A DNA stretch of 62,412 nt, from positions 17,710 through 80,121 of the forward strand of contig MHJJ01000011.1 of assembly GCA_001817915.1 (NCBI GenBank), read 5' to 3'. Each line of letters opens with the position of its first letter. The stretch's first letter is position 1. The stretch is from Candidatus Harrisonbacteria bacterium RIFCSPLOWO2_01_FULL_44_18. Its GTDB lineage: Bacteria > Patescibacteriota > Minisyncoccia > UBA6257 > WO2-44-18. Under the pieces are notes generated by a model. The model did no database searches. It was not told the origin of the DNA and saw nothing but the letters and a program-made list of their open reading frames with translations. Shown piece after piece: positions 1-59,065 of this stretch. The translations under genes were made by a program, and so were the position numbers.

Positions 1-278
1 CGCGGCACAAACCAATGAATAATATCAAACCGTTCTTTGGTGGTAAGGAAAAAATAGAGCTCGGCCAAAAAACGAAAGCCCCCGAATGGCTTCATAATTA
101 TTTCCCGAGCCTCTTGATATAAAGATTCTTCGGGAATTTTCTCAAAATGTATCAGAGTTAAATCTATTTCCGGATCTTTCAGAAATTCCTTCGCCAAGTG
201 ACGGAGATAAACCTCGGTTCCTTTGCCCGGCCTCCGATCCAACAAATGAGACATAAAAGCCACCTTAATTTTTTGCAT
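1..278 (-). CDS. glycosyltransferase (GT4-like), N-terminal part; gene continues beyond window start
   Basis: Own minus-strand translation from ATG at 278-276 gives MQKIKVAFMSHLLDRRPGKGTEVYLRHLAKEFLKDPEIDLTLIHFEK... The frame stays open to position 1. It is absent from the ORF track because the window truncates it. The N-terminal pattern resembles the other GT4 genes here. Confidence 0.5.
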   Translation of the reverse strand, partial: MQKIKVAFMSHLLDRRPGKGTEVYLRHLAKEFLKDPEIDLTLIHFEKIPEESLYQEAREIIMKPFGGFRFLAELYFFLTTKERFDIIHWFVP

Positions 279-1781: not shown

Positions 1782-4216
1782 CTTTTAAGCAGGCCTTCTA
1801 TTAAATTTTTATAAGAATACCGTAAATTAACGGTGTGCGCGCCCGATGGAACAAAAATGCCCATATAAACTGAATTGCTTGTATAAAGCGGCGCTTCTTT
1901 ACCGTCAATAAAAACTTTCCAGCCCGGAATGTTGTTTCTAGCGACAATAAGAAATTCGTCATTGGCGGAAAAAGTTTTTATGACAATATCGGCGTTGTCT
2001 TGTTTCAATAATATAACTTCTCCGGCTTCTTGTTTGTTTGCGCGCGCAAAATTCGGACAAGCGGCGCATTCAATAAGAACGCGGAGCGGGTCGGCGCTTG
2101 TTTCTTTCAACATCTTGAATGCCCGCTCTTCGTCTTCGGAAATAAACGTAACTTGACCGGCAAAATAAACAAATGGCCTGGCTTCTTTATTTTCATAAAT
2201 GCCGATCGGGATGTTGTAGGGAGGGATCTGGCCGGAGAAAACTTTTTCAAATCTTGTTTCGTCCAGAGGAAAAACGCTGATTAGATATTTCACGCCGAGA
2301 AGATCCATCAGCCATTTATTTGATTGCACAACCGCGATTTTATCTTTTAATAAAGCTTTCGGGTCGTGAATAACCGGAACTTTTATGACGCTTTTCCCAT
2401 TGCCAAGATGAGCGGCCGCTCTGGCCATTCGGCGATTCATCAAATTGTCGTAATATCCCAAAGAGTTAATGCCGAAACGCTGATTTATATTGGGCTGAAG
2501 CGTTTCATAAAGAAAGAGGATGCGCCCGTCAATATCGTCCTGAAATTTTCTGTAAAATTCCGCTTGAGAATCGCCGGGAAGAACAGAAAGCGACAAACCC
2601 GGATAATTTTGTAAAAATTGAACCGTGGATGGCGCGTAATCGGCAAGCGACCGAGAATAGGTCTGGCGATAGAACGGGAAAACCGCGATAAAATTCAGCG
2701 CGACTAAAATAAAAGAAAGTCGGATAAAACGCGGCTCCGCCAACTTATTCCTCCGATAATAAAAAATTAACGCGGAAGTGGCTACCAGAAAAAACACCGG
2801 TAAAAACACCGAAGGGGAGGTGATGTCAAAAAGTCCCGTCAACCGCTGATAGTATCTGTCAATAAGGTCATGATAGAACTGCATGGGCTGAAGATATGGA
2901 CGAGCGGGATACATATAAAGATCAAAGTATCTATGGAGCCAAGCCAGTATCTTTTCCCCAAAAAGAGCCGTGATCGCGCTTAACATCAAAATGCCGGTGG
3001 CAACTATGCCGGAAAGCCACAAAAATAATTTGCAAATCGCGTTTTTTGAACGAGAGAAATTTTTTTCAAGAAATTGATCCATACCAAAACCAACCAATAA
3101 AGAAGAAACAAAGCCGGCCAGAAACATCCACCGTCCCGCTCCGCGTAGCATATTCATAATGGGCAATTTTGTAAAAATCCAGATAAGCGGCGAATAATTA
3201 ACGACTAAAAGAAGAATGAACAGGTAAAAAAAAGAGAGAAATCGCGCTAACCCTCGACGAACAGTAAAAGCGTAAAGAAGCAAAAATAAAGAGAGGGCTC
3301 CCAGATAAAAAGAAATTTGGGCGTCGGGAATGTGCGGCGGATGGAAAAAGGGAAGAAGAAAACGAACAAAGTCTTGAGGATTGGCGGCCCCAACCAACGC
3401 GGTCTCAAAACTAACGCCGCCAATACGGCTGGATTGAGGGATAAAAACTAAAACCGGAAGGATCTGCGCCAAGCCGATCGCTAAACCGACCGCCATAACC
3501 GCGAACCACTTGCCAACTACTTTGGCAATTTGAATCATGGGGACTTTTTCTCTCCAAGATCTCCACAGAAGATATAAAGAAAAAATCGCCAAACCAAGAA
3601 AGATTTCTTGTACCCAATTATAATTTGTGGAAAGCCAGAGAAAGCCGACGGATAACCCGCCGAGAAAAACCCAACGCCATCTTTTTTCCGCCCAAATTTT
3701 ATAAAAAATCAGAAAAAGAAGCGGCAAGTAAGGTACGCCGTTTGTGAGTGTTGACTCCCCCACGTAAAACCAAGCGCTGGCAATGTAAGTAATTCCGCCG
3801 ATGAGACGCCCCGCCCAAGACACTTTAAATTCTTTCAACAGACGCGCGGTAAAAAAAGCCCCCAAAACAAGGTGCAGAAAAGTAAGCCAATGATAAGCCG
3901 TTAGAACTTCAAGAAATCGAAAGAATAAATAATTGATCGGGTAGAAAAGTCCGCCGATGGTATTCAAAATGGTCGGAAAACCCCCGAAAGATATTGGGTT
4001 TAGTAAAAAACTTTCACCGGCGCGGATGGCGTTTTGATAAAAAGAAAAAGTTGGCTCGGCCGCCGTCAATAAATCCATGCGGTAAAGAACCCGAAAGCCA
4101 AGCAACTCGGGAGCAAGGGCGATAAAAATCGGCAACGAAAGCAAAAGAATATCCATCCACCACGACTCCTTATGTCGGACGATTTTTTCAAACAAAATTT
4201 TCATTTTACTCGGCAA
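1778..4216 (-). CDS. large polytopic membrane protein, GT-C-type (YfhO-like) putative glycosyltransferase
   Basis: 812-aa ORF. It has a long N-terminal region of many hydrophobic helices followed by a soluble C-terminal domain of a few hundred residues. It overlaps both neighbours, in operon style. Confidence 0.55.
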   Translation of the reverse strand: MPSKMKILFEKIVRHKESWWMDILLLSLPIFIALAPELLGFRVLYRMDLLTAAEPTFSFYQNAIRAGESFLLNPISFGGFPTILNTIGGLFYPINYLFFRFLEVLTAYHWLTFLHLVLGAFFTARLLKEFKVSWAGRLIGGITYIASAWFYVGESTLTNGVPYLPLLFLIFYKIWAEKRWRWVFLGGLSVGFLWLSTNYNWVQEIFLGLAIFSLYLLWRSWREKVPMIQIAKVVGKWFAVMAVGLAIGLAQILPVLVFIPQSSRIGGVSFETALVGAANPQDFVRFLLPFFHPPHIPDAQISFYLGALSLFLLLYAFTVRRGLARFLSFFYLFILLLVVNYSPLIWIFTKLPIMNMLRGAGRWMFLAGFVSSLLVGFGMDQFLEKNFSRSKNAICKLFLWLSGIVATGILMLSAITALFGEKILAWLHRYFDLYMYPARPYLQPMQFYHDLIDRYYQRLTGLFDITSPSVFLPVFFLVATSALIFYYRRNKLAEPRFIRLSFILVALNFIAVFPFYRQTYSRSLADYAPSTVQFLQNYPGLSLSVLPGDSQAEFYRKFQDDIDGRILFLYETLQPNINQRFGINSLGYYDNLMNRRMARAAAHLGNGKSVIKVPVIHDPKALLKDKIAVVQSNKWLMDLLGVKYLISVFPLDETRFEKVFSGQIPPYNIPIGIYENKEARPFVYFAGQVTFISEDEERAFKMLKETSADPLRVLIECAACPNFARANKQEAGEVILLKQDNADIVIKTFSANDEFLIVARNNIPGWKVFIDGKEAPLYTSNSVYMGIFVPSGAHTVNLRYSYKNLIEGLLKR

Positions 4217-11988: not shown

Positions 11989-12687
11989 TTATTTTTTGCG
12001 AAGCACATAATAAATACTTTTCCCAAACCATTCATTTTCCGGAAAACGAAATTTGCGAAAAAAACCGTAAGGAAACTCTCCTTTGCAAAAACCTTTTTCA
12101 ATGATATTAAAATATTTTAAGACGGTTTTTTTAAAAACGCCTTTGGGAAATAAGGCAATATGGTCATTTTTTTCTTGCCACCGAGGCATATCGCCGCTTT
12201 TGAGAAAAATCAATCTATTAAAGATATTAAAAATGTTCGGGGTTGAAAGAAAAAATATTCCGCCGGGCTTCAAAACGCGGTTAACTTCTCTGATAAAATG
12301 GTGCGGATTTTCCAAATGTTCAATGACCTGCCAGGCGCTTACTGCGTCAAAAAAATCATCTGGCCAGGGCAACATTTCGAAATTTATATTGCCGACTTTG
12401 AATTCTCGAAAATATTTTTTTCTCTCGTTTGTCGCGTAATCGCCGGCATCGTATCCAAATACTTCCCAGAAGTCATCTCGCCGAAGCTGTTCGGCGAAAA
12501 AACCGTTTCCACAGCCGATGTCCAGAATACGGAAATCTTTTCGTACGCGCGCGTGAAACAAAGCCAGCGCTCTTCCTTGAACCACTATATCGCTTCCTCC
12601 GCCTTCATCCCAAGCATTCCGCAGATCGTTTCGCGCGGCAGGTAATTCGTTTGGATTTAAGTATTTCATCCCGCACATAACTAGCAC
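11989..12687 (-). CDS. class I SAM-dependent methyltransferase
   Basis: ILDIGCGNGFF and AWQVIEHLENP motifs. The track start is GTG at 12687. ATG at 12678 or 12669 is more likely, because the first codons lie inside an inverted-repeat arm. Confidence 0.8.
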   Translation of the reverse strand: MLVMCGMKYLNPNELPAARNDLRNAWDEGGGSDIVVQGRALALFHARVRKDFRILDIGCGNGFFAEQLRRDDFWEVFGYDAGDYATNERKKYFREFKVGNINFEMLPWPDDFFDAVSAWQVIEHLENPHHFIREVNRVLKPGGIFFLSTPNIFNIFNRLIFLKSGDMPRWQEKNDHIALFPKGVFKKTVLKYFNIIEKGFCKGEFPYGFFRKFRFPENEWFGKSIYYVLRKK

Positions 12688-12960
12688 AACAAGCTATGAC
12701 GCAATCTATCTTTGAGTCGGCGCCAGGCTTGACCATGCTACTTTAATGATGCCTCACGACGATAGGCATCTTCTTTGATGGCATATACCTCGCAGTAAAC
12801 AAGTTTGATGGGTAATCTTGATTTGGTGTATAAAACCTTTCCTTGCTTATGCTGTTCCAATCTCTTTTTGAAGTTATTGGTACAACCAATGTATATTGTA
12901 TTTAACTTTGTTTTGAGGAAATAAACGTAATACATAAGCAATGCTAATTATGTGCGGGAT
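12668..12960. mobile_element. GIY-YIG ORF bracketed by ~19-bp terminal inverted repeats (candidate small selfish element)
   Basis: 12668-12686 ATCCCGCACATAACTAGCA matches the reverse complement of 12942-12960 (ATCCCGCACATAATTAGCA), 18 of 19 positions. The arms enclose only the 65-aa GIY-YIG ORF. Confidence 0.45.
12738..12935 (-). CDS. GIY-YIG nuclease family protein (short, UPF0213-like)
   Basis: MYYVYFLKTKLNTIYIGCTNNFKKRLEQHKQGK...LVYCEVY...AYRREASLK carries the GIY / YIG / R / E pattern. The ATG at 12935 is preferred over the TTG at 12941. Confidence 0.75.
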   Translation of the reverse strand: MYYVYFLKTKLNTIYIGCTNNFKKRLEQHKQGKVLYTKSRLPIKLVYCEVYAIKEDAYRREASLK

Positions 12961-34767: not shown

Positions 34768-35938
34768 AAGTTTTTTTGTATTGGGATAGGTATTCATTTT
34801 TGTTCTTAATGACGCCCTCCCCGATTCGGCCTCGGTAATTTTGCCGTGACCGCATAATCTCCAAAATACTCTCTGCAAGCGCTTTTGTATCACGCGGTTT
34901 TATAATAATGCCTGATTCCCCGAATTTTATAATTTCTGGAGCAACGCCGACATCAGTAGTTAATGCCGGACAACCGCTCGCGCCCGCTTCTACCAATGTT
35001 CTCCCATAACCTTCGTAATTGGAAGTTAACATAAAAAGATCGGCGGTTTTGTAGTAAGAGATTAAATCATCTGTCCACGATTCGAATACAATATTAGATT
35101 TTAGGTTGTAGCTTTTAGCTTTCAGCCGGAGCGCTTCGCGCTCTGGTCCGTCACCGACAATAAGTAACAAAATGGATCGCTCAATACTTTGGACTTCCGA
35201 TGTCCTAACATTAAACAGTTCTGCCATTGCCTCTATCGCCATACCGATATTCTTTTCCCTGGTCAGCCGCGAAGCCATTAAAATTATAAAATCGTAGCCG
35301 GGGTATTTTTTATGAAGATCGGTTTTTATCGGCGCGTTTTTTATTTTCTCCATATCAACGAATATTGGCAAAACGTGAATATTCGGGTCATCGCAAGACC
35401 TAAGGTCTTGCGATGACCTTAAAATTGAGTTTTTAATACGTTGAGATACAACTCGCAAACAATCGGCTTTTTTTACTAACCATTTTCCCAACAAAACGCG
35501 GATTTTATTTTTAAACGATTCCTGCCAAAAATAAGGACTTAGAAAATCGGTGTGAATTTGAATCTGGAGCGGCAAGCCGAATTTTCTTTTAAGCAAATAA
35601 CCGGCTAGGCCGGTTTCAAAAGGATCTTGAGCGGTAATTAGTAATTGGTAATTGCCTGCCTGCCGGTAGGCATGGGTAATTGGTAATTGGTTAATAATTT
35701 TTTTTCCAATCCTGTACGCATCTCGAAAATATAACGGTTTCCAACTTGTATTTGTCGAATAAGCCCATACATTGTTTGAAATTTTTTTCGCAGCACTCGG
35801 ATAATCGTTCGGATTATGTTTAGTATATGTGATAATGTGCAATTCTTGAACTAGTTGCCCATACTCAATCATCCGGGCTTGAACTTCAGAGCCGGCTTTA
35901 AATATATTTTGATCGGTTGATAACATTAGAACCCTCAT
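34739..35938 (-). CDS. glycosyltransferase family 4
   Basis: YEGYGRTLVEAGASGCPALTTDVGVAPEII motif; carries an in-frame heptamer-array insert (see findings). Confidence 0.8.
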   Translation of the reverse strand: MRVLMLSTDQNIFKAGSEVQARMIEYGQLVQELHIITYTKHNPNDYPSAAKKISNNVWAYSTNTSWKPLYFRDAYRIGKKIINQLPITHAYRQAGNYQLLITAQDPFETGLAGYLLKRKFGLPLQIQIHTDFLSPYFWQESFKNKIRVLLGKWLVKKADCLRVVSQRIKNSILRSSQDLRSCDDPNIHVLPIFVDMEKIKNAPIKTDLHKKYPGYDFIILMASRLTREKNIGMAIEAMAELFNVRTSEVQSIERSILLLIVGDGPEREALRLKAKSYNLKSNIVFESWTDDLISYYKTADLFMLTSNYEGYGRTLVEAGASGCPALTTDVGVAPEIIKFGESGIIIKPRDTKALAESILEIMRSRQNYRGRIGEGVIKNKNEYLSQYKKTFSFCSSRKN

Positions 35939-36045
35939 CCCGTTAGAAGTGGAACCTATTTTGACGCGAACCTTTAATCATTGTTTTATTGCCGGACATA
36001 TCCCGTATAGTTATGGCGGCCGCGTTGGGCGCCGCTTCTAACGGG
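35939..36045. repeat. palindromic intergenic element, termini CCCGTTAGAAG
   Basis: 35939-35952 CCCGTTAGAAGTGG matches the reverse complement of 36032-36045 (CCCGTTAGAAGCGG). It occupies the entire spacer between two GT4 genes. Its terminal core is shared with the clpB insert. Confidence 0.6.
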
Positions 36046-36047
36046 AT

Positions 36048-41240: not shown

Positions 41241-42647
41241 TTATCTAAACCAGCCGAGAATTACCTGCAACAAATTTCCAAGAAAAGAAGATTTGACTTG
41301 GCTGCCGCTCGGCAAAGTCCGCTGATCAAAAGGATAAGCGCCAATATCCGCCCTGGTACCATCTGGATCTTTAGAAAAAGCCGGATCGCCGGCGTCAATC
41401 ATTATTGAATTTGACCGCAGTTGATAATTGTCCGCTCCGGCAAAAAGCGGGTCGGTGGAAAAATTGTTGATCCCCGAAGGAGTAAATTTTTCTCGCCTTC
41501 TGAAAGTGTAATAATTTTCCGTGGCGTTGTTCCAAACATTAGTATAAGAAATTTTCAAGATTTCGTGTTCTTTCTCCGCGGAGCCCTGAGACGCCGCCAC
41601 TCCATATTCTCGATTGGAAACTATTATGTTGTTGATTAATTTATGATTGCCGCCGACCGAATCAAGATAATAGCCTGTATTATTTTTCGCAATCGTATTA
41701 TTTTCTGCGCTGACAACGCCACCGTAAGCCGCGTTATCATAAATGCCAAAAGATTTATTATTGATAATCAAATTATTTTTTAAAAGTATTGAACCGGCCA
41801 CGGCAAACACTGATATGCCGATTGAACTATTCTTGATAATAGAGTTTTTTACCGTAACGGCCGCTTCTTCTCTGGGAATATTTAAATAGACAGCTATGTT
41901 ATCAAGATTAGTATTGACGGTAAGCCCGTCAATAACCGCGGAATTAACGCCGTCTGTCAAAACAATGCCCAAGCCTTTATCGGGATTAATAATAGTTGCT
42001 TCCGCGCCTTGCTCGCTTTGAATAGTTAACGCGTTGGTTTTAACAAAAAGATTTTCTTGATAAACGCCCGGCGATATTAGAATTACGTCTCCTGAACAAG
42101 CGGCATCAATAGCTGACTGAATAGCGGCGTATTCAGACGGGATTTTTCGAGTTTTGCAAACCGGCTCAAGAGAGAGCACCGCGACCGCCGGCTCTGGCTC
42201 CGGCTTAATCTCAATTGCTTCTCTGGCCGCGGGTTCCTCCGCGACCACTGGCGCTGACACAAGTAGTTCGTTAAGTTTGGCGCGGGTAAAAGCGCCAACT
42301 CGCCCATAACCGGTAGTTTCCGGCGTCCCGGAACTGACAATTCCATATTTAACCTGAAATCTCTTTACGGCCGCTTCAGTCAGCAAACCAAAATAACCGG
42401 TTACCAAGCCTTCGGGATAAACATCCGGCCATTGTTTCAAAAATTTCTGCAATTCTTCAACTTGCGGATTCTGAAATCCTTTGTATAGAGATTCAGTGAA
42501 CCCCGTTACTCCCCGGTCTAAAGGTCGGAACATCTCCTCCGATCTGAAGACTGGGGTATCGGGGAGTAACGGGGTGAATACGGCCGCCGAAGCGGTCAGA
42601 TAGGAAAACAAACCGAAAATAATTAAAAGCAAAAACAGTTTTCTCAT
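41241..42647 (-). CDS. secreted protein: PG_binding_1-like domain plus right-handed beta-helix repeats
   Basis: Signal peptide MRKLFLLLIIFGLFSYLTASA. VEELQKFLKQ...GYFGLLTEAAVKRFQVKYGI is a peptidoglycan-binding-type motif. Repeated NxxIxNN beta-helix turns follow. Confidence 0.7.
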   Translation of the reverse strand: MRKLFLLLIIFGLFSYLTASAAVFTPLLPDTPVFRSEEMFRPLDRGVTGFTESLYKGFQNPQVEELQKFLKQWPDVYPEGLVTGYFGLLTEAAVKRFQVKYGIVSSGTPETTGYGRVGAFTRAKLNELLVSAPVVAEEPAAREAIEIKPEPEPAVAVLSLEPVCKTRKIPSEYAAIQSAIDAACSGDVILISPGVYQENLFVKTNALTIQSEQGAEATIINPDKGLGIVLTDGVNSAVIDGLTVNTNLDNIAVYLNIPREEAAVTVKNSIIKNSSIGISVFAVAGSILLKNNLIINNKSFGIYDNAAYGGVVSAENNTIAKNNTGYYLDSVGGNHKLINNIIVSNREYGVAASQGSAEKEHEILKISYTNVWNNATENYYTFRRREKFTPSGINNFSTDPLFAGADNYQLRSNSIMIDAGDPAFSKDPDGTRADIGAYPFDQRTLPSGSQVKSSFLGNLLQVILGWFR

Positions 42648-42818: not shown

Positions 42819-45800
42819 CTACGGAGTTAGAGTTTCAGATGTCATATTGGTGCTCGGCAAACCATCCACTTGGAATCCATTCACCCAATCATAAGAGGCA
42901 ACGCCGGAAGTAGTAGTGGAGTTACCGGACCAAATGAAGTCATCATGAACAGCGAAACCGTCAACAAGGGCCGCCGTGGTAGCAAACGCATAGTTACCGG
43001 CGCCAGATCCAACCCAGCTATCGGCATTATCGCCGCCAATAGTATTGGATCCCGCGGTATAAGAAGCATCTCCCAGCAAGCTAACGCTCACCGTAGAAGA
43101 AGTAGCGCTCATGTTGGCAACCGTACCGGTTAACTCATAGTAACGAGTTGTTCCGGCCGGAACTTGAATGGCTTCATTAGTGCCACCTTGTGCTACCGGG
43201 TCAAAGTAGAATTCCCACGCAGTGCCGCCACCACTAGTTAACGTCATAGATGAACTATTTACCAAGCCGTTGTTGCTATAGGCCGCCTGTGAAAACGCGG
43301 AATCAGAGTAACCACGAACCTGCAAATTAGTGATAGCAAAGGACGGGAGACCCGAAGTTGAAGTAGCGATATCGAGTGTGAACTTATAGAGACCAACTGT
43401 GCCAGCTGACGGCGCGGTTACCGAGAAACGGTACAGCGGAATATTGGCATTTATCAGCTTTGTGCTCGGTAAAGCCAGTTTAGTCAACTTCGGAATGGCC
43501 TTAAAGATTCTGGCGCCGCTAGAAGCCGTGGTGGCTCCGGTAGCGTAAACCGTACTGCCAGAAGAAAGACCAGTGCCTCGAGTGGCATTACCCGCGGAAT
43601 CAGCATTAGCGCCATCATACTCAACCCTTACCAAGTGGCCAGGTCTTGCTGGATCTGACGTGCCAATAGCCGCGAGATCGCCTTTAATGGTCAAAGTCTT
43701 ATCAGCATCCTTCGGAACAACGAACGCGGTCAAAGTAGCAGTAGCATTGTCACCAGTCAAGACAGATTCGCCAACCTTAGTAGCACCATCCCACAATGTA
43801 ACCTTCACCAAGTCTTGAGGAGTATTTGAACCAGTGCCTCCCAATACCAAACCTAACTGCTTAACTTCAACAGCTTCATTAGCGCTAGTAAATCTCAATA
43901 CTGCTAAAGTGTTGTCGGTGGTATTGGCATTTATCAATCTTATACCCGGACTTGACGAATCCAAAGCAACGGCAATAGTGCCGGCATTAGTCAGAGTAAT
44001 CGCCTGACCGGTAGTATCGTCATAGGTCTCTGTAATTGTTGAACCAGAGGTCATGCCAGTCGGAATCATATCATCGGCATCGCCCGGAATTTCCAGAGTC
44101 CAGTTGTAGGTGGTAGTAGTGGTTGTCGTAGTAGCGCTCGTATTGCACTTTAAGGCCAAAGTCTTAACTACTCCTTTAGGAATAATCCAGCTCTGATCAA
44201 AAGTGAACACTTTATCAACGGCAGTGGCATCGGCATTGGCGCCGTCTCTGACGTTAGTTCCGGTGTTTAGCGCCTTACTGCCATCCCATAACTGACAATT
44301 CGTCAGGTCATCGTTGGAATTGACTTGACCAAAGTTAAATTCAACCTCCGTTGAATTTAACCTGACATCTTCGCCTGACGCGGTTGTGTCAAACGAGAGG
44401 TTAGCAAGAGTCAAACCCTTAACACCAGCCACCATAGTCTGCGTAACCGGCGTAGGCAAGGTTGACACCCTCAAAGCTCCGGCTTTTACCGTCATAGTAT
44501 TGCCGGTAATAGCGGTAGATGGAGTCGGCGTAATAGTCACGCCGCTAGTTGTACCTCTTACGGTTGACCAACCCGATGGAGTTGTGGACGCGGACACCGT
44601 ATTGTCAGTCGCATAGTCAGTACTCAACTGACCTTTTAGCGTAAAGGTGTTAGTACCAATTGGGAAGACGACAGTATCGGTGAATGTCAAGTTCGGGCTG
44701 GTGGCGGCAATATCTACCGGTCCAGCAACCGCCTTGCCAGTTGAATCAACCAATGTGACGTTAGTTATGTCCTGCGTGCCGGCAGTAAGACTAGTGCCAG
44801 CCCATCGGCTGAATCTAAATACCATTTGGGCAACACTGACCGGCTCGCCTTTTACGATGACGTCAAAAGCGCCCAATGGCTGATTAGCCAAGTTGATAGC
44901 AACATTTTGAGACGGAACTGCGTTTGATGCCATAACTTGGATAGTTCCAGCGCCGATAGTCGTTGTAAAGGCGTCAAACCTTGGTTCAGCATCTTGAAAT
45001 TCGCCGTCATCATCGTTGTCAGCGGAAGTTTCTGTCGCGCTTGGCAACAGGGTATAGCCGTAAGTCAAGCCCATAACTTGCAAATCGCCATAGCGGTATA
45101 GATCAAAATCAATTGTTCTATTTGAACCATCCGCTACGTCGCCCTTGATAGACATTTCCTTATTCAATCCTTTCGCGATTTTAACTCCCTCGCCGAATGT
45201 GGCAACGTAATACTTACCGTCCGAACTAACAGTTGTCGGATATTCGACGCCATCCAAAACAACTTTAATATTAGCTACGTCGCTAACGCTCGCGGAACCG
45301 GATTGATTCCAACTAACAGACTTTACTAGGACGTCCTCGTTAGAACCCGCGGTTAATCTCAGGCCGGAAGTAGTGTACCCGGTAGTGCCAATTTCTTTTG
45401 TTTGGCCAGATCCCGGATCAAAAGATCCTCGCGCGAGAGTTACCGTGCCAACAGCTAAAGTGCTGTTAACGGTCATTACGGGTCCTGTTAACGGGAAGCT
45501 GGCAACAACAGTCACGGGGCTGGCTTCAGCGTCAACGGCTACCAAGCTCAAAGAAGCTAATTGGCCCTGGTAGTCATTCTGATCGCTGTCAGAATCACCG
45601 GCCAAAGTTATTGTCCTGCTTTGACCCGCCTTGACAACAAATTTTTCAGTTAATTTAAGACGGTGATCCGCGCCAAAAGTCTTAGAAGTGCCCATGCGGA
45701 TACCATCTTCGCCTAAAGCGATTACTCCGCTGAAAATCGCGTCATTGGCTTGGCCAGTTCTTTCAATCGTCAAAGATTTAACGGTAATGTCTGCGTCTGC

Positions 45801-46439
45801 CGATGCTGTTAATGACAGCTTTGTAAATGGTCGGCTGGCAAAACTCTCACCGAATAAACCTGGAGCCGGTTGATCTGGAGCTAAGGCAACAGTAAGAGTT
45901 GCCGCGCCAACGGCCGGAGCAGTCGGGGTTGTCGGAGTTGTCGGGGTTGTCGGGGTTGTCGGGGCAGTCGGGGTCGTCGGGGCTACCGCTAATGAAGCGT
46001 ATTTAGCCCTAGACACTGGACCCCAATATCCGGCTGCTGGAGAAACACCTTTCGCTGACTGCCATTTGGCGACAGCCGCTTTGGTTAATGAACCAAAGTA
46101 GGTAGTTTCATTGCCCGGAGAACCAGAACCGCTTGCCACGACTTGATAGCCGGCGCTGTTAAGGGCTTGCTGTAAACATTTCACGTCATCGCCTTTTGAG
46201 CCAACGGTGAGGTCGCGGCTAAAAGTGCAAGCAACGGAAACGCCAGCGCCGCCTTGCGTACCAGCTAATTGAGTCTGCAATAGAGCAATCTGAGCTAACA
46301 ACGCGTTGATTTGCGTTTGCAAATCAGCCACCGATTGCGCTTGCGCGATCGGCAAAAGCATTGCTGAGCCAGAAAGCCAAACAGCGGTTGTCACTGAAAG
46401 CGCAACCGATGTTATCTTTTTCGTTAATTTACTACTCAT
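42819..46439 (-). CDS. giant secreted cell-surface (S-layer-like) protein with PG-binding domain
   Basis: 1206 aa. Signal peptide ending AQAQS, coiled-coil LQTQINALLAQIALLQTQLA, PG_binding_1-like GDDVKCLQQALNSAGY...KAAVAKWQSAKGV, a PT-rich linker, then about 1000 aa of Thr/Ser/Val/Ala/Gly-rich beta-type sequence. It has its own strong terminator. Confidence 0.75.
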   Translation of the reverse strand: MSSKLTKKITSVALSVTTAVWLSGSAMLLPIAQAQSVADLQTQINALLAQIALLQTQLAGTQGGAGVSVACTFSRDLTVGSKGDDVKCLQQALNSAGYQVVASGSGSPGNETTYFGSLTKAAVAKWQSAKGVSPAAGYWGPVSRAKYASLAVAPTTPTAPTTPTTPTTPTTPTAPAVGAATLTVALAPDQPAPGLFGESFASRPFTKLSLTASADADITVKSLTIERTGQANDAIFSGVIALGEDGIRMGTSKTFGADHRLKLTEKFVVKAGQSRTITLAGDSDSDQNDYQGQLASLSLVAVDAEASPVTVVASFPLTGPVMTVNSTLAVGTVTLARGSFDPGSGQTKEIGTTGYTTSGLRLTAGSNEDVLVKSVSWNQSGSASVSDVANIKVVLDGVEYPTTVSSDGKYYVATFGEGVKIAKGLNKEMSIKGDVADGSNRTIDFDLYRYGDLQVMGLTYGYTLLPSATETSADNDDDGEFQDAEPRFDAFTTTIGAGTIQVMASNAVPSQNVAINLANQPLGAFDVIVKGEPVSVAQMVFRFSRWAGTSLTAGTQDITNVTLVDSTGKAVAGPVDIAATSPNLTFTDTVVFPIGTNTFTLKGQLSTDYATDNTVSASTTPSGWSTVRGTTSGVTITPTPSTAITGNTMTVKAGALRVSTLPTPVTQTMVAGVKGLTLANLSFDTTASGEDVRLNSTEVEFNFGQVNSNDDLTNCQLWDGSKALNTGTNVRDGANADATAVDKVFTFDQSWIIPKGVVKTLALKCNTSATTTTTTTTYNWTLEIPGDADDMIPTGMTSGSTITETYDDTTGQAITLTNAGTIAVALDSSSPGIRLINANTTDNTLAVLRFTSANEAVEVKQLGLVLGGTGSNTPQDLVKVTLWDGATKVGESVLTGDNATATLTAFVVPKDADKTLTIKGDLAAIGTSDPARPGHLVRVEYDGANADSAGNATRGTGLSSGSTVYATGATTASSGARIFKAIPKLTKLALPSTKLINANIPLYRFSVTAPSAGTVGLYKFTLDIATSTSGLPSFAITNLQVRGYSDSAFSQAAYSNNGLVNSSSMTLTSGGGTAWEFYFDPVAQGGTNEAIQVPAGTTRYYELTGTVANMSATSSTVSVSLLGDASYTAGSNTIGGDNADSWVGSGAGNYAFATTAALVDGFAVHDDFIWSGNSTTTSGVASYDWVNGFQVDGLPSTNMTSETLTP
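45919..45981. repeat. 7 x 9-bp tandem repeat encoding the Pro-Thr linker
   Basis: Units GCAGTCGGG / GTTGTCGGR; the minus strand encodes PTTPTAPTTPTTPTTPTTPTAP. Confidence 0.9.
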
Positions 46440-46877: not shown

Positions 46878-46994
46878 GCCGAAACGGAGTAATCGCGAAT
46901 AATGCTAACCCGATTCGAAATAATGCGAACAAATTATTAGCATTATTTTGCCAAAATTCGCATTATTAGCGATTACTCCGAATGATTCGGCCTC
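46875..46994. repeat. MITE-like palindromic element, copy A (94-bp core 46886-46979)
   Basis: The core termini GGAGTAATCGC / GCGATTACTCC and internal AATAATGC / GCATTATT repeats match copy B at 58968-59061 in reverse orientation, at high identity by eye. An extra outer inverted repeat is GAGGCCGAA (46875-46883) against TTCGGCCTC (46986-46994). Confidence 0.75.
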
Positions 46995-48745: not shown

Positions 48746-48891
48746 CAGTTACCAGTTACCAGTTACCAGTTACCAGTTACCAGTTACCAGTTACCAGTTA
48801 CCAGTTACCAGTTACCAGTTACCAGTTACCAGTTACCAGTTACCAGTTACCAGTTACCAGTTACCAGTTACCAGTTACCAGTTACCAGTTA
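48746..48891. repeat. perfect heptanucleotide microsatellite (CAGTTAC) x 20 plus a partial unit
   Basis: Counted directly: 20 identical units at 48746-48885, then CAGTTA. It fills the whole convergent spacer. The stop codon of 48889..49623 lies in the last unit. Confidence 0.97.
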
Positions 48892-49623
48892 TACAGTCCA
48901 CTTTGAAGCGATAAATATCGTCAGCATTAACAGAATAAAGATACTTACATCAACAAGAATAGCTCTGCGGCTCAATGACCCTTTAACGTAACGGCTTGCC
49001 AGGTCGCTCAAAATAAAAACCGGCAAAATCATTAAATTCGCGGAGTTAAGAAATCCCAACGGAAGCAAGCTGACTGCCCAGACGGCCTCAAAAATCACTA
49101 AAGCCAAAACCCACGCGATTAAATTTCGCCGCTTAAATTCAGGCGCCGAGAATTTAACAAATTCCCTAAAAAGCAAGAAAGCGGCGAAAAACACCACCAA
49201 AGATTTCGGAATAAAATAGCCGCCGCGATCGGATAGAAAGAAAATGACGAAAGTCGCGTAAAATAAAAACAAGTTTAACGCGGAATACCACTGGCCGCGG
49301 CTGATAAACGCCAAATTTTTCAATCCCAGAATCAAATAAAATAAAAAAGAAAAGAAAATATCCGCGATAACAAAAATAAAAAGCCCGTCAATTGTTTTGG
49401 CGCCGATTAACGATAAAACAGTCAAAACGCCAAATGAGGAAAGAAGGGCAAAACTGTTAAAAATTGGCTGGGAATATAAAAATCCCGCCGACAATAAAAA
49501 AAATAAAATCGGCGCAAGACCGAAATCGCCGATTTTCACTAAGGCCAAAAAACTGCCAAAAATTGCCGCCTTAACGGCTAACGACGAAAGCGGATTCTTT
49601 AAAAGATACCTTAACTTTTTCAC
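48889..49623 (-). CDS. polytopic membrane protein, unknown function
   Basis: 244-aa ORF, strongly hydrophobic with about 7 helices. Its start overlaps the end of clpB. Confidence 0.55.
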
Positions 49624-52267
49624 CGTCTTTGATTTGGCCTTTTATTATTTGATCGGCCAGCTTATCCAAAATCATTTTTTGAACCAGCCGCCTAATCGGG
49701 CGAGCGCCGTATTCCGGACTAAATCCATTTTCCACCAAATAATTCTTGGCGGCGGCGTCAACGGCGATCTTTATGTCGCGCTCCGCCAATTTCTCCTTCA
49801 CTTGATTTAACGAAATTTCAACGATTTTTTCAATATCCCCTTTGCGCAACGGATTGAAAATTATAATCTCGTCGATCCGGTTCAAAAATTCCGGTTTGAA
49901 ACTCTGCTTCAGCGCTTCTTGAATTTTTTGCCTAAAACTCTCTTCTTGAAATTGCGCTTCGTTGTCGCCCAAGGAAGAAAAACCCAAATTTGACATCTCT
50001 CGGAGATAATGACTGCCGACATTGGAAGTCATAATAATTATGGAGTTTTTGAAATTAACCGTCTTGCCTTTGCCGTCCGTCAGCCGGCCGTTGTCCAAAA
50101 TCTGCAGCAAGATATTAAAAACTTCCGGGTGCGCCTTTTCTATCTCGTCGAAAAGAATCAAACTGTAAGGCCGGTGCCGCAAAGTTTCAGTCAGCTGGCC
50201 GCCTTCTTCAAACCCGACATATCCGGGCGGCGAACCGATCAAGCGCGCCACCGAATGCTTTTCCATAAACTCGGACATATCAATCCTAACCAAAGCTTTC
50301 TCGTCGTTAAACATAAATTCTGACAGCACTCTGGCTAATTCAGTTTTGCCTACGCCGGTCGGACCTAAAAACATAAATGAACCCAACGGACGATTCTCGT
50401 CGGATAAACCCGCCCTGGCCCTTCTCAGGGCACTAGCCACCGCCGTGATGGCTTGATTCTGCCCAATCACTCTTCTGGATATGGCCTCTTCAATGCGCGA
50501 CAACTTCTGGGTTTCCGACTCTAACATTTTGGTCACCGGAATACCGGTCCACCGCGAAACCACAGCGGCAATATCTTCATCATCAACAACTTCTTTGATA
50601 AATCCTTCGCTGGCAGATTCGCCAACCTTAGGCCTGGCGAAATTTCTTTTCTCAAATGCCTTATATTCTTTCTCGGCTGCCGGCAATTCACCATAAATAA
50701 CCTGCGCCACCCTTTCCAAATTTCCTTCCCGCTCAGCTACTTCGGCCTGATGCCGCAAATCCTCAATCCGCTTTCTTAAATTATGGAGATTCTCAAAAGC
50801 TATTTTTTCGGCATGCCAAGTCGCTGACAACTCCGTATTTTTCTCTTTCAAATCAGCTAATCCATCTTCAATTATTTTAAGCCGATTCTTGGTTTTGAGA
50901 CTTGCCCCGTTAGAGGCAAAGGCGCGTTGCGAGCCCTCGCGGCCTCTAACGGGGCTTGCTGATTCTCCGATCAACGCCGACCGCTCAATTTCCAAACGGG
51001 TAATCTCTTTTCGCGTTTTTTCAATTTCTTGAGGCAAACTTTCAGTCGCCAAACGCCGAGCCGCGGCCGCTTCGTCAATCAAGTCAACGGCTTTATCGGG
51101 CAAAAATCTGTCGGTGATGTAACGAGCGGAAAAATTTACCGCGGCGATCAGCGCCTCGTCGCTGATTCTCAAACCATGATGAATTTCATATTTTTCTTTG
51201 ACTCCGCGTAAAATCGCGATAGCGTCTTCAATGCCCGGCTCCTCAACCATAATCGGCTGAAAACGCCTTTCCAGCGCCGCGTCTTTTTCAATGTAACGCT
51301 GATATTCCCTAATGGTGGTGGCGCCAATAGCGTGAAGTTCGCCTCTGGCCAATGCCGGTTTTAAAAGATTAGAAGCGTCAATCGCTCCTTCGGCGGCTCC
51401 GGCGCCGACAATCATATGAATTTCATCAATAAAAAGAATCAATCGGCCGGCCGAATTTTGAATTTCCCGAACAAAAGCCTTGAGACGATCTTCAAATTCG
51501 CCTCGAAATTTAGTGCCGGCGATCAAAGATCCTAAATCAAGCATAATAATCTCTTTGCCCTTGAGAGTTTCCGGCACTTCTCCGGCCACTATTCGCTGCG
51601 CCAATCCTTCAACGATGGCGGTTTTACCGACACCGGACTCGCCTATCAAAACCGGATTGTTTTTGGTACGGCGGGAAAGCACTTGCATAAGCCGCCGCAA
51701 TTCTTCCTCGCGGCCGATCACCGGATCTAATTTTCCGTCGCGGGCTCGCTCGGTCAAATTAATCGCGTATTTATCAAGAACCTGAAATTTACTTTCCGGC
51801 ATCTCGTCGGTAATCCGGGCGGATCCTCTCAATTGAGCCAACGCCCTCAAAGCCATGTCTCGGCGCAGTTTGAATTTTTCCAAAATCATTTGAGCCGAAG
51901 AAACGACGTCAAGAATGCTTAATAATAAATGTTCGCAGGAAATAAACTCGTCTTTTTGAGAAAGCGCGATTTTAGCGGCCCGGTCAATCACTTGCATCAC
52001 TTCTTGAGATAAATAAAGCTGGCCGACATTAGAGGCGGCAAAAATCTTGGGCAGTTTTTTAAGCTCCTCTTCAACTTCTTGATCTAGGGTCGCCAAATTC
52101 ACTCCTGATTTTATCAAAAGCGGCCTGACCAATGATTGCTCATCATTGATCAAGCTGGCTAAAAGATGCACCGCTTTAAATTCGCCGTGATTTCTTTGAG
52201 TAGCCAAATCTTGGGCGCTTTGCAGCGCTTCCTGCGCTCTAATCGTAAACCGATGAAAACTTCTCAT
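49571..52267 (-). CDS. clpB: ATP-dependent chaperone/disaggregase ClpB
   Basis: Clp N-domain, Walker A motifs [18 protein letters not shown] and [14 protein letters not shown], and a coiled-coil M domain; 898 aa. Confidence 0.95.
50900..50959. repeat. GC-rich palindromic 60-nt insertion translated in frame within clpB
   Basis: Arms GCCCCGTTAGAGGC (50904-50917) and GCCTCTAACGGGGC (50942-50955), flanked by direct CTTGC. It encodes [20 protein letters not shown] (codons 437-456). Confidence 0.7.
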
Positions 52268-52369: not shown

Positions 52370-53779
52370 CTACCGGCGAATTTTGAGAAATTTTATTAAC
52401 GTGGCAATTGTATAATCAATATCTCTTTTTGCCGTTTGCCGGCCCAGACTGAATCTTAAACTGCTTGAAGCTCGATCCAAAGAAAACCCCATTGCCCGCA
52501 AAACATAAGATGTCTTCGAAACGCGCGAAGAACAGGCGGCTCCCAAAGAAGCCGCGATGCCGGCCAAATCCAGTTTTATCAATAGTTCTTGCGCCCTATT
52601 CCCGGGAAAATAAATATTAAGATTATTCGGCAATCGCTCTTTCATTGAACCGTTAACGGCAATCTTAGAATTTATTTTCTTAAACCCGCGCCAAAAGTAA
52701 TCGCGTAATTTACCAACTCTTTTATTCTCTAATTCGCGCGAATTAGAGATAAGTTCCACCGCCTTGGCGAAACCGACTATATAAGGAACGTTATCGGTTC
52801 CGGAACGCAAACCGAATTCCTGGCCGCTACCAGTAATAATTGGAGAAATGTAATTGGTAATTGGTAATTGGTAATTGGTTCTTTGTGATTTTATTCCCGA
52901 ATCACTATTTACCATTTGCCAATTCCGGGCGTATAAAACGCCGATTCCCTTCGGCCCGTAAATTTTGTGAGCCGAGAGAGTCATTAAATCAACGCCTAAA
53001 TTTTCCGGCCGGCAATCTAGATATTGAAAAGACTGGGCGGCGTCGGTGTGGAAAAGAGGGTAACTGGTAACTGGTAACTGGCAACTGAAGATAGGTATTT
53101 TTTTTCTATTTACTAATTTCCAATTACTAATTACTTCCGCGATAGCGGAAATCGGCTGAATCGCGCCAATTTCGTTATTGGCATGCATTATTGAAACTAA
53201 AACCGTCCGTTCATCAAGGGCAGTTTTTATTTTTTTCAAGTCAACGATTCCATCTTTCGAAACCGGAATATAAACAACCTCAATGCCGTCTTTTTCCAAA
53301 TCTCGGCAAGTTTCCAAAATAGATTCATGCTCAATGGTCGAAACAATAATTTTTGGCTGTAAAAAGTTTTGAACGAAGGCAGATTGCTTTGAGGAACATC
53401 CCGCAGACACGCTGGGCTTGGTTCCCGACGAAAGTCGGGACCAGCGCGCCGAGGGAGAAGAAATTTTTGCCGCTGGAGCAAAAATATTCTGGTTCCGAAA
53501 AGCAGTCGCCTGAGAATATACAAAACTTTTTACGGCGCCGCGGAGCGCCAAATTATTCGCTTCAGTTGCCGATCCGGTAAAAATTATTTCGCGATAATCA
53601 GCGCCAAGAGACTTGGCAATGCCCAAGCGCGCCTTAAATACCGCCGCTGAAGCCTCTTGGCCAAATCTGTGGAGAGCGGAAGGATTGCCAAAAATTTTAG
53701 AAAAATACGGCCGCATCGCCGCTGTCACTGCCGGATCAACTGGCGTTGAAGCCGCGTAATCAAAATAAATTCTTTTCAT
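52370..53779 (-). CDS. iscS: cysteine desulfurase (class V aminotransferase, IscS/NifS type) carrying three in-frame insertions
   Basis: YFDYAASTPVDP, FTGSATEANN, SIMHANNEIG, PLP-lysine SAHKIYGPKG, GQEFGLRSGT and active-site loop SLGAACSS. It is 469 aa against about 380-400 for typical family members. Confidence 0.85.
   Translation of the reverse strand: MKRIYFDYAASTPVDPAVTAAMRPYFSKIFGNPSALHRFGQEASAAVFKARLGIAKSLGADYREIIFTGSATEANNLALRGAVKSFVYSQATAFRNQNIFAPAAKISSPSARWSRLSSGTKPSVSAGCSSKQSAFVQNFLQPKIIVSTIEHESILETCRDLEKDGIEVVYIPVSKDGIVDLKKIKTALDERTVLVSIMHANNEIGAIQPISAIAEVISNWKLVNRKKIPIFSCQLPVTSYPLFHTDAAQSFQYLDCRPENLGVDLMTLSAHKIYGPKGIGVLYARNWQMVNSDSGIKSQRTNYQLPITNYISPIITGSGQEFGLRSGTDNVPYIVGFAKAVELISNSRELENKRVGKLRDYFWRGFKKINSKIAVNGSMKERLPNNLNIYFPGNRAQELLIKLDLAGIAASLGAACSSRVSKTSYVLRAMGFSLDRASSSLRFSLGRQTAKRDIDYTIATLIKFLKIRR
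52850..52925. repeat. inverted heptamer-array element inside iscS (copy 1)
   Basis: (GTAATTG)x4 at 52850-52877, a 27-nt spacer, then CTATTTA CCATTTG CCAATTC at 52905-52925. It is translated as QMVNSDSGIKSQRTNYQLPITNY. Confidence 0.7.
53060..53133. repeat. inverted heptamer-array element inside iscS (copy 2)
   Basis: (GTAACTG)x3 GCAACTG at 53060-53087, an 18-nt spacer, then CTATTTA CTAATTT CCAATTA CTAATTA at 53106-53133. It is translated as ..NWKLVNRKKIPIFSCQLPVTSY. Confidence 0.7.
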
Positions 53780-58966: not shown

Positions 58967-58967
58967 C

Positions 58968-59061
58968 GAAGTAATCGCTAATAATGCGAATTACAGCAAA
59001 ATAATGCCAATAACGTATTCGCGTTATTTCGAAACAGATTAGCATTATTCGCGATTACTCC
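58968..59061. repeat. MITE-like palindromic element, copy B
   Basis: A 94-bp element between ftsK and the rodZ-like gene. Its reverse complement aligns along its full length with 46886-46979. Confidence 0.75.
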
Positions 59062-59065
59062 GATT

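Follow-up and report, generated by a model that had tools for sequence, protein, structure and literature searches.

This report concerns a short GC-rich palindrome inside the clpB gene of Candidatus Harrisonbacteria bacterium RIFCSPLOWO2_01_FULL_44_18, on a 62,412-nt stretch of contig MHJJ01000011.1 that was analysed as a whole and is called the window below. The clpB open reading frame (ORF), delimited from the ORF list and by full-length ClpB alignment, occupies 49571..52267 on the minus strand and encodes 898 amino acids (aa). Its product aligns over the whole length with ClpBs of solved structure (E = 2.5e-267 for that of M. tuberculosis and 3.7e-267 for that of T. thermophilus), shows the domain plan that defines ClpB/Hsp104 (an N domain and two AAA+ modules, the first interrupted by the coiled-coil M domain), and retains intact Walker A and Walker B motifs in both AAA+ modules. 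At 50905..50954 the gene contains a 50-bp miniature palindromic element without an ORF, CCCCGTTAGAGGC..GCCTCTAACGGGG, and we conclude that this palindrome is a real mobile-element insertion that adds 18 residues to a loop of ClpB.

The plus strand at 50901-50959 reads CTTG-CCCCGTTAGAGGC-aaaggcgcgttgcgagccctcgcg-GCCTCTAACGGGG-CTTG-C. The outermost features are the two copies of a target-site duplication, CTTG, at 50901..50904 and 50955..50958, which were read directly and placed by the register of the wider family described below; they enclose terminal inverted repeats of 13 bp, the left at 50905..50917 (including a variable first base) and the right at 50942..50954, defined by a repeat finder and by family statistics. 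An inner palindrome at 50929..50940, GCGAGCCCTCGC, was also read directly and is conserved across the subfamily of copies that, like this one, have a 48-nt core. The arms returned by the repeat finder are perfect over 14 nt (50904-50917 / 50942-50955, 24 nt apart), and the GC content of the element is 0.70 vs 0.466 for the gene, a value equalled by only 0.1% of the 50-nt windows of clpB. Folded as RNA the palindrome reaches -40.2 kcal/mol (z = -4.7; as DNA z = -3.9), with none of 200 shuffles as strong, and the 26-nt interior of elements of the clpB type is structured at the shuffled level (mean z = 0.11). A first-pass annotation, made from the sequence alone, had already described a near-perfect palindrome with 14-bp arms, an inner GCGAG-CC-CTCGC hairpin, a GC content far above that of clpB and codons 437-456 as the palindrome-encoded stretch, all of which are present as described. 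It had also proposed a direct repeat of five bases, CTTGC, and an insertion of 60 nt or 20 codons; the pentamer does occur at 50901-05 and 50955-59 and the in-frame insertion is real, but the duplication is the 4-bp CTTG and the insertion measures 54 nt, or 18 codons. The borders of the element and the length of the duplication are fixed by the register that family statistics set over 134 copies, and by metagenome contigs that match these 50 bases only; the fifth matching base and the fourteenth arm pair exist because the target is of the CNNG type. On the coding strand GCAAG stands on either side of the element with a spacing of 54 nt. The 54 inserted bases (50 + 4) therefore make 18 codons in frame with clpB, and clpB from which they are subtracted is an intact ORF of 880 aa.

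That the 18 codons were gained by this lineage is evident from comparison with other ClpBs. HMMER alignments leave 19 residues of the window ClpB unmatched at the palindrome relative to the M. tuberculosis, T. thermophilus and E. coli proteins, in line with the 19-20 extra residues estimated earlier for E. coli, and this excess is therefore accounted for by the 18 inserted codons and one residue of ordinary loop variation. Alignment with the 119 closest database sequences, from Patescibacteria at 70-76% identity, places the insertion at the palindrome, as had been anticipated: 118 have gaps at most of the insert columns, with a typical reading of ..SALxKExxxxxKxRLK.., and the insert peptide, whose presence in relatives had been named as a point to check, occurs in none of the 119. 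A minority of these relatives carry unrelated, mostly Lys-rich inserts at the same loop, and in one of them, P0082, the insert fills nearly all of the columns with unrelated sequence. The Patescibacterial proteins concerned (P0046, P0050, P0057, P0062, P0077, P0082 and P0097) have inserts of 10-25 residues, that of P0062 being PAGGHGLPADRNGG, and the M-domain loop of ClpB appears generally permissive to inserts.

An AlphaFold2 model of the window ClpB, built on a 42-sequence alignment (mean predicted local distance difference test score, pLDDT, of 69), has long helices at residues 389-436, 455-513 and 517-543, with residues 437-454 non-helical and residues 438-455 at pLDDT <50. The insert is thereby predicted to be a low-confidence loop at the turn joining the first two coiled-coil helices of the M domain, which agrees with the earlier suggestion of an extra loop in that domain; the turn is what we take to be the tip of motif 1 in the established ClpB nomenclature. 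An identical insert is present in all three protein variants of the 90% identity cluster (13 contigs), and contigs that span the element together with both flanks show no differences (X6 50600-51014, X12 50846-51116 and X17 50805-50961). Alleles lacking the element, for which the first-pass annotation had suggested a search, were found neither in the contigs of eight metagenome runs nor among the proteins clustered at 90% identity. In the sampled population the insertion is fixed, and the element is most likely a tolerated, now fixed, scar of a parasite.

The same palindrome is widely dispersed. Eight metagenomes from groundwater, soil and sediment in which the window organism is present provided contigs, which were aligned to the clpB locus. 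Contig depth, ~10 on either side of the element, climbed about 100-fold, to 800-2400, over precisely 50905-50954 in X1, X3 and X5, with a spike of ~450 in X10 and of 10-20 in the low-coverage runs X6, X12 and X15; many short contigs match 50905-50954 alone and have unrelated flanks. Further CCCGTTAGA-terminated palindromes, which the first-pass annotation had recommended seeking, are likewise found, two of them elsewhere in the window and the others by a scan of one genome per prokaryotic species for the exact pattern CCCGTTAGARG-N15-45-CYTCTAACGGG, which gave at least 120 loci vs ~4 chance matches calculated (596 Gb x 31 spacings x 2.3e-13). The matches come from many classes of Patescibacteria and from Omnitrophota, Planctomycetota, Elusimicrobia, Nitrospirae, Riflebacteria, Ratteibacteria and others, and several genomes have multiple copies among the matches listed. 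In 2.9 million viral contigs only two matches to the miniature pattern were found.

Across 134 unique copies the shared ends are YCCCGTTAGA..TCTAACGGGR, and the positions that immediately enclose CCCG...CGGG pair with each other in 96% of copies (C:G 69%, T:A 28%). The copies are flanked by a direct repeat in a single register, L[-5..-2] = R[2..5], where the four positions match at frequencies of 0.78, 0.72, 0.70 and 0.81 vs ~0.25 elsewhere; since the match is confined to one register, the duplication is 4 bp long, and the proposal in the first-pass annotation of a mobile palindromic element with a target-site duplication now has statistical support. The targets conform to YNNR; TTTA/TAAA, TTGA/TCAA and TTCA/TGAA predominate, and some, among them the CTTG of clpB, are CNNG. 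Miniature copies are 24-123 nt long and have no coding capacity. Some lie nested in one another or in tandem arrays with one duplicated target copy in common (L025, L036, L044, L068, L083, L126, L129, L139, L150 and L162), which suggests repeated hits on a regenerated target.

How do genes cope with such insertions? Copies deep inside long ORFs make up 45 of 136, and in 43 of the 45 the core length is divisible by three, a result that the ORF criterion for intragenic copies partly builds in; the lengths of non-coding copies, in contrast, are split 31/17/21 over the three remainders modulo 3. From this contrast it follows that only frame-preserving, stop-free insertions persist in genes, and it argues that ribosomes read through the intragenic copies. 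The 48-nt-core subfamily has 22 members in the sample (clpB and 21 other loci), of which 12 lie within long ORFs, and it encodes a recurrent peptide ending in (A/P/V)xASNG on one strand and another recurrent peptide mostly on the other; its recurrent peptide is found in eight unrelated ORFs as well as in clpB. A concatenated 54-aa query of insert peptides returned 63 candidates and was uninformative on prevalence. The interiors of the 60-66-nt classes surpass both shuffles and random genomic controls in predicted structure (mean z ~ -2 vs -0.2 for the controls). In a Riflebacteria bin a prepilin-like ORF (L043 1654-2238, minus strand) holds two element copies at a GFT|LIE site, and the coding sequence of GFT, GGNTTYAC, agrees with GTTTAC and GTTCAC, the most frequent flanks of the targets.

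Longer elements with the same ends as the miniatures exist, and their only protein is a GIY-YIG nuclease, not a recognised transposase. They were reached via unpaired termini in family loci, and the first of them (L062 1618-1890) is 273 nt long with flanks ACTCAT/ACTCAT and an 86-aa ORF, the last codons of which (..KRFLSLTG) lie inside the right repeat. The 86-aa protein matches Pfam GIY-YIG (PF01541) with E = 2.3e-16 and, by sequence, UPF0213 protein BH0048 (PDB 1zg2) with E = 1.9e-9; its AlphaFold2 model has a pLDDT of 92.8, and the nearest folds are 1zg2, then Slx1 (template modelling score, TM, 0.60-0.64) and then I-TevI. In 47 sequences the GIY-YIG residues Y5, R26, H30 and E62 are invariant and Y16 is nearly so. 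A metagenome scan for nuclease-encoding loci, with a two-sequence alignment as query, gave 491 relatives; in the best 80 of these, which were analysed, both repeats are present at 71 unique loci and the modal length is 275 nt. The full-length repeats pair over 12 nt, (Y)CCCGTTAGAGA.., with the outer base complementary in 94%, and the duplication register is the same as that of the miniatures.

The nuclease stop codon falls within the duplicated TGAA/TAAA in 29 full-length loci, and many full-length copies sit exactly on a host ATGAA start, where the nuclease TGA overlaps the regenerated host ATG; many database calls of the nuclease are 94 aa long because they were made from a host-derived ATG. 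The nuclease ORF is intact in 45 of 48 cases, with a median dN/dS (ratio of non-synonymous to synonymous substitution rates) of 0.13. At E <= 1e-5 there are 4666 relatives of the nuclease, which databases call a 'putative endonuclease', a 'GIY-YIG nuclease family protein' or, in error, 'excinuclease ABC subunit C'; none was found in the phage and plasmid collections searched. A divergent GIY-YIG element at L105 5200-5560 has the repeats CCGCACACTAA/TTAGTGTGCGG and flanks CCTAT/CCTAT, and stands directly after an apparent 3' end of a tRNA gene.

Mobility was assessed by aligning the contigs of four of the same metagenomes to a full-length element, L121. There the ORF is covered by contigs to a depth of hundreds and the right end to one of 2000-3000, and the flanks are heterogeneous at both borders. 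Full-length copies are abundant in the runs in which the window organism occurs. One type of contig, with an empty site, lacks exactly the element and one TGAG copy, and reads ..CCATGAGTGAAC... Other contigs have internal deletions of 69-194 nt in the L121 element; these are the intermediates expected between the 275-bp and the 50-bp forms, and a further locus, L057, is a truncated intermediate of 142 nt.

The window itself holds three more relatives of the clpB element. The inverted-repeat list gave two miniatures, and six of the nine CCCGTTA heptamers in the window fall in three CCCGTTA...TAACGGG pairs; a search of the window with the 14-mer arm sequence found nothing beyond chance-level near-matches. 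The second family copy (42501..42574, 74 bp) is flanked by a TGAA duplication at 42497-42500 / 42575-42578, and its 78 inserted bases add 26 in-frame codons to ORF 41241..42647 (minus strand), which encodes a secreted protein combining PG_binding_1 and beta-helix domains; the addition is close to the N-terminus. The third (35938..36046, 109 bp, flanks CTCA / TTCA) fills the gap between two glycosyltransferase genes, with the upstream TGA stop and the downstream ATG start lying within the duplicated ATGA-type target, and looks like a remnant of a longer element. Finally, a relative of the full-length type, recognised by tblastn and by reading of the sequence, occupies 12669..12959 on the minus strand (291 bp, repeats CCCGCACATAA / TTATGTGCGGG) and is bounded by a TTCA duplication at 12665-68 / 12960-63. 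Its GIY-YIG ORF (12690..12935) carries an in-frame TAG, and the product has 41% identity to the L062 nuclease (tblastn E = 1.9e-12; Pfam GIY-YIG E = 2.2e-13). The insertion site is the ATGA stop/start overlap of a 451-aa ORF and a methyltransferase gene.

We conclude, with a probability of roughly 0.8, that the palindrome in clpB belongs, as a non-autonomous miniature without an ORF, to a family of very small mobile elements, and that the full-length members of this family, of ~275 bp, encode an 86-aa UPF0213-type GIY-YIG nuclease. Several observations weigh against this conclusion or narrow it. The homology between the 48-nt interior and the subterminal sequence of the full-length elements is weak, and was judged by eye. 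The window's GIY-YIG copy, at 12669-12959, has a different repeat and an in-frame stop, and the 62-kb window was found to contain no full-length copy whose repeat is exactly of the clpB type (..AGAGGC). The taxonomic breadth of the family rests on metagenome bins, some of which are possibly mis-binned, and the search for an empty clpB allele rests on contigs, which could miss rare empty alleles. Lastly, GIY-YIG enzymes are hydrolytic nucleases, and to our knowledge strand-transfer chemistry is not known for any of them.

What, then, might move these elements? In the scheme that we propose, a full-length element of ~275 bp, with 12-bp terminal inverted repeats and one ORF, inserts with duplication of 4 bp of a YNNR target, and internal deletion gives rise to derivatives of 24-70 bp that keep only the ends. 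The nuclease would recognise the repeats, possibly as hairpin or branched DNA, a form of recognition that we propose because the fold of the nuclease is Slx1-like, and would make a 4-nt staggered cut at the YNNR target; host ligation or repair would complete transposition, and the ORF-less miniatures would be moved in trans. One 50-bp derivative entered a CTTG within the part of clpB that encodes the turn from M-domain helix 1 to helix 2, where the gene stayed open because 50 + 4 = 54 nt are stop-free in that frame, and the insert would now be read as an 18-residue disordered loop of a ClpB that would still be functional. That the nuclease itself moves the elements is likewise something we infer, and the joining step is without explanation because no GIY-YIG enzyme known to us performs strand transfer. 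We regard it as an even question whether the ~275-bp elements are a new class of autonomous bacterial transposable element, in which a sole 86-aa nuclease of Slx1/UPF0213-like type recognises its own repeats and cuts YNNR with a 4-nt stagger.

The obvious competitor is an ordinary MITE (miniature inverted-repeat transposable element) moved by a conventional transposase, DDE or other, with the GIY-YIG ORF as a passenger or as a homing-endonuclease gene that has colonised the palindrome. A 4-bp duplication with inverted repeats is a signature of DDE transposition, homing-endonuclease genes are known to invade other selfish elements, and the joining activity such a transposase would bring is just what is not known for GIY-YIG nucleases. 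Yet the 86-aa ORF stands alone between the repeats at 71 loci of the best 80 of 491, in elements of only ~275 bp; the C-terminus and stop codon of the nuclease are built into the right repeat and the duplication; divergent GIY-YIG copies (12669-12959 and L105) pair with divergent repeats in the same architecture; and ~1 Mb of loci contained no longer element with these ends and another gene. We consider a conventional transposase unlikely on these grounds. Somewhat more doubtful still is that the insert in clpB has been co-opted, its loop at the M-domain tip altering ClpB regulation or coupling to DnaK and being kept by selection. The insert is fixed in all sampled variants, its site is the tip of a coiled coil with an established regulatory role in ClpB and Hsp104, and several other lineages have unrelated inserts at the same loop; against this, permissiveness explains recurrent inserts at one loop equally well, the insert is predicted to be disordered, and the clpB peptide is the one that the same element produces in unrelated proteins.

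Is the extra peptide made at all? The element might be removed or skipped at expression, as an intron or by a bypass like that of T4 gene 60 or the mitochondrial byps, to yield a ClpB without it, and the strong mRNA hairpin (-40 kcal/mol), the flanking direct repeats that could serve as take-off and landing sites, and the TAG/TAA codons in one frame of the repeats would all suit such a process. We think it very improbable, given that 43 of 45 intragenic copies, and not the non-coding ones, are multiples of three and stop-free, which is expected only with read-through, and that neither an Rfam intron or ribozyme match nor conserved junction nucleotides were found. Assemblies are indeed interrupted here (contig ends fall at 50957-59 and contig starts at 50930), which might point to an assembly artefact, or there might be a native lineage-specific loop and no insertion; we give this almost no credence, since contigs obtained independently in several runs cross the element from one flank to the other without differences, the reading frame is kept and the same sequence recurs in many other contexts.

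Compared with known systems, the miniatures have the hallmarks of MITEs: terminal inverted repeats (perfect over 13 bp in clpB, with ends conserved in 134 copies), a target duplication of fixed length (4 bp, with an empty site that lacks the element and one copy) and many dispersed copies without coding capacity. Like Correia/NEMIS and IS-derived MITEs (IS, insertion sequence) they are non-autonomous and numerous, and arise when a longer element that shares their ends loses internal sequence; unlike them, they have a longer partner that encodes only an 86-aa GIY-YIG nuclease and not a known transposase, and one third of the copies lie inside ORFs. Every IS/MITE pair known to us is far larger than these full-length and miniature forms. 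A MITE survey of 183,232 genomes mentions neither endonucleases nor any of the phyla of this family. Integron attC sites were rejected because the core order is reversed (GTTAGA 5' and TCTAAC 3' vs RYYYAAC...GTTRRRY) and the copies are solitary and inside genes, IS5-type YTAR targets by the target sequence, and group I/II introns by the Rfam results (no match at the gathering threshold in the window or in 18 loci, and chance-level matches only at E up to 10).

In behaviour the family comes closest to MITEs and to the Rickettsia palindromic elements. The latter are short palindromes that insert in frame into genes; their translation gives additional segments on the protein surface, which even essential proteins tolerate. 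These are ~100-150 bp long and confined to Rickettsia, and we know of no enzyme partner for them. By description, the present family differs in its 24-70 bp length, 12-bp ends, 4-bp duplication, spread over many phyla and nuclease-encoding full-length form, and on the same basis the 50-bp clpB element, of a family found in Patescibacteria and other phyla, is not a Rickettsia palindromic element. Yeast mitochondrial GC clusters and byp elements are similar in being mobile GC-rich palindromes of 30-60 bp that inhabit an AT-rich genome and can sit in coding sequence; they are organellar, byps are skipped by the ribosome, and no enzyme partner is known to us, whereas the multiple-of-three rule seen here indicates read-through.

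Two further systems resemble the family in their enzymes. The REP/REPIN-RAYT system (REP, repetitive extragenic palindromic) also consists of short GC-rich genomic palindromes linked to a small single-gene enzyme flanked by the same palindromes. According to PMC3733652 and established knowledge, RAYTs are HUH Y1 (IS200/IS605-like) transposases, and REPs are extragenic, with a GTAG or CGTC tag and no duplication; with a GIY-YIG (PF01541) partner enzyme, a 4-bp duplication and common intragenic copies, the present family is not of this kind. The GIY-YIG homing endonucleases (I-TevI, Seg) and UPF0213/Slx1 proteins have the same catalytic fold as our nuclease and share with it a selfish-gene context; UPF0213 has so far been assigned no function. 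Homing enzymes are larger, have separate DNA-binding domains and one long cognate site, spread by repair from the donor allele and leave no inverted repeats or duplications, whereas we find hundreds of unrelated YNNR sites with both; classical homing was set aside because, with the catalytic domain present, the insertion sites have only YNNR in common and show both repeats and a duplication. Tsurumaki et al. (2024; PMC11270868) reported GIY-YIG non-intron insertions, and many short ORF-less insertions of <200 bp, in rRNA genes of the Candidate Phyla Radiation; their paper describes the GIY-YIG insertions for rRNA genes, with no miniatures, and makes no mention of inverted repeats or palindromes. 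Compared by description, these rRNA-gene insertions are probably of the same family as our elements. GIY-YIG genes also figure in another paper's list of genes for which transfer out of Patescibacteria into other bacteria was predicted. A literature search, including one for the literal sequence (which met only unrelated primers), found no description of the family, most subscription journals being outside its coverage, and the family, though widespread, is apparently undescribed. In-frame miniature palindromic mobile elements are already known as a kind; what would be new in category, should the nuclease prove to mobilise them, is their apparent partner.

The window also contains repeats of other sorts. 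A heptamer microsatellite, CAGTTAC, is present in 21 copies between genes at 48746-48891 and is also listed at 53059-53087, 52850-52879 and 35641-35689. Four copies lie inside a class-V aminotransferase (cysteine desulfurase-like) ORF (52370..53779), where the Pfam Aminotran_5 match is split into three stretches, and a variant, CAATTAC, occurs in the same ORF and in a glycosyltransferase ORF; the copies in ORFs look like repeat-derived in-frame inserts (peptide QLPVTSY). A second, unrelated palindromic family of ~96 nt, CGGAGTAATCGCGAATAATGCTAA...TTAGCATTATTCGCGATTACTCCG, has two intergenic copies (46885-46980 and 58967-59062), one of which fills the gap from a stop codon to the next start codon, and a 9-nt tandem repeat, GTCGGGGTT x 6.8, lies at 45922-45982 within a 1206-aa ORF (42819..46439).

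The family accounts for a class of unusual inserts, GC-rich and encoded by palindromes, in the conserved proteins of ultra-small bacteria from groundwater, and its signature, YCCCGTTAGA..TCTAACGGGR with a 4-bp repeat, can be used in annotation. Short-read assemblies are broken by the elements, a point of importance to binning and gene calling in these phyla. The inverted repeats, duplications, empty site and deletion derivatives link thousands of mini-genes annotated as 'GIY-YIG nuclease family' or misnamed 'excinuclease ABC subunit C' to a mobile lifestyle, and clpB provides the example of an essential chaperone in which a parasite-derived loop of 18 residues is tolerated where the regulatory coiled coil has its tip. 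If the nuclease does mobilise the elements, it would represent a route of transposition outside the DDE, HUH, serine and tyrosine classes, in an element smaller than any known IS. Were the ~275-bp elements truly a new class, they would be the smallest autonomous DNA transposons known, would provide a function for the large UPF0213 family, and would be the source of short in-frame inserts in proteins, and probably in rRNA genes too, of Patescibacteria, Omnitrophota, Planctomycetota and others.

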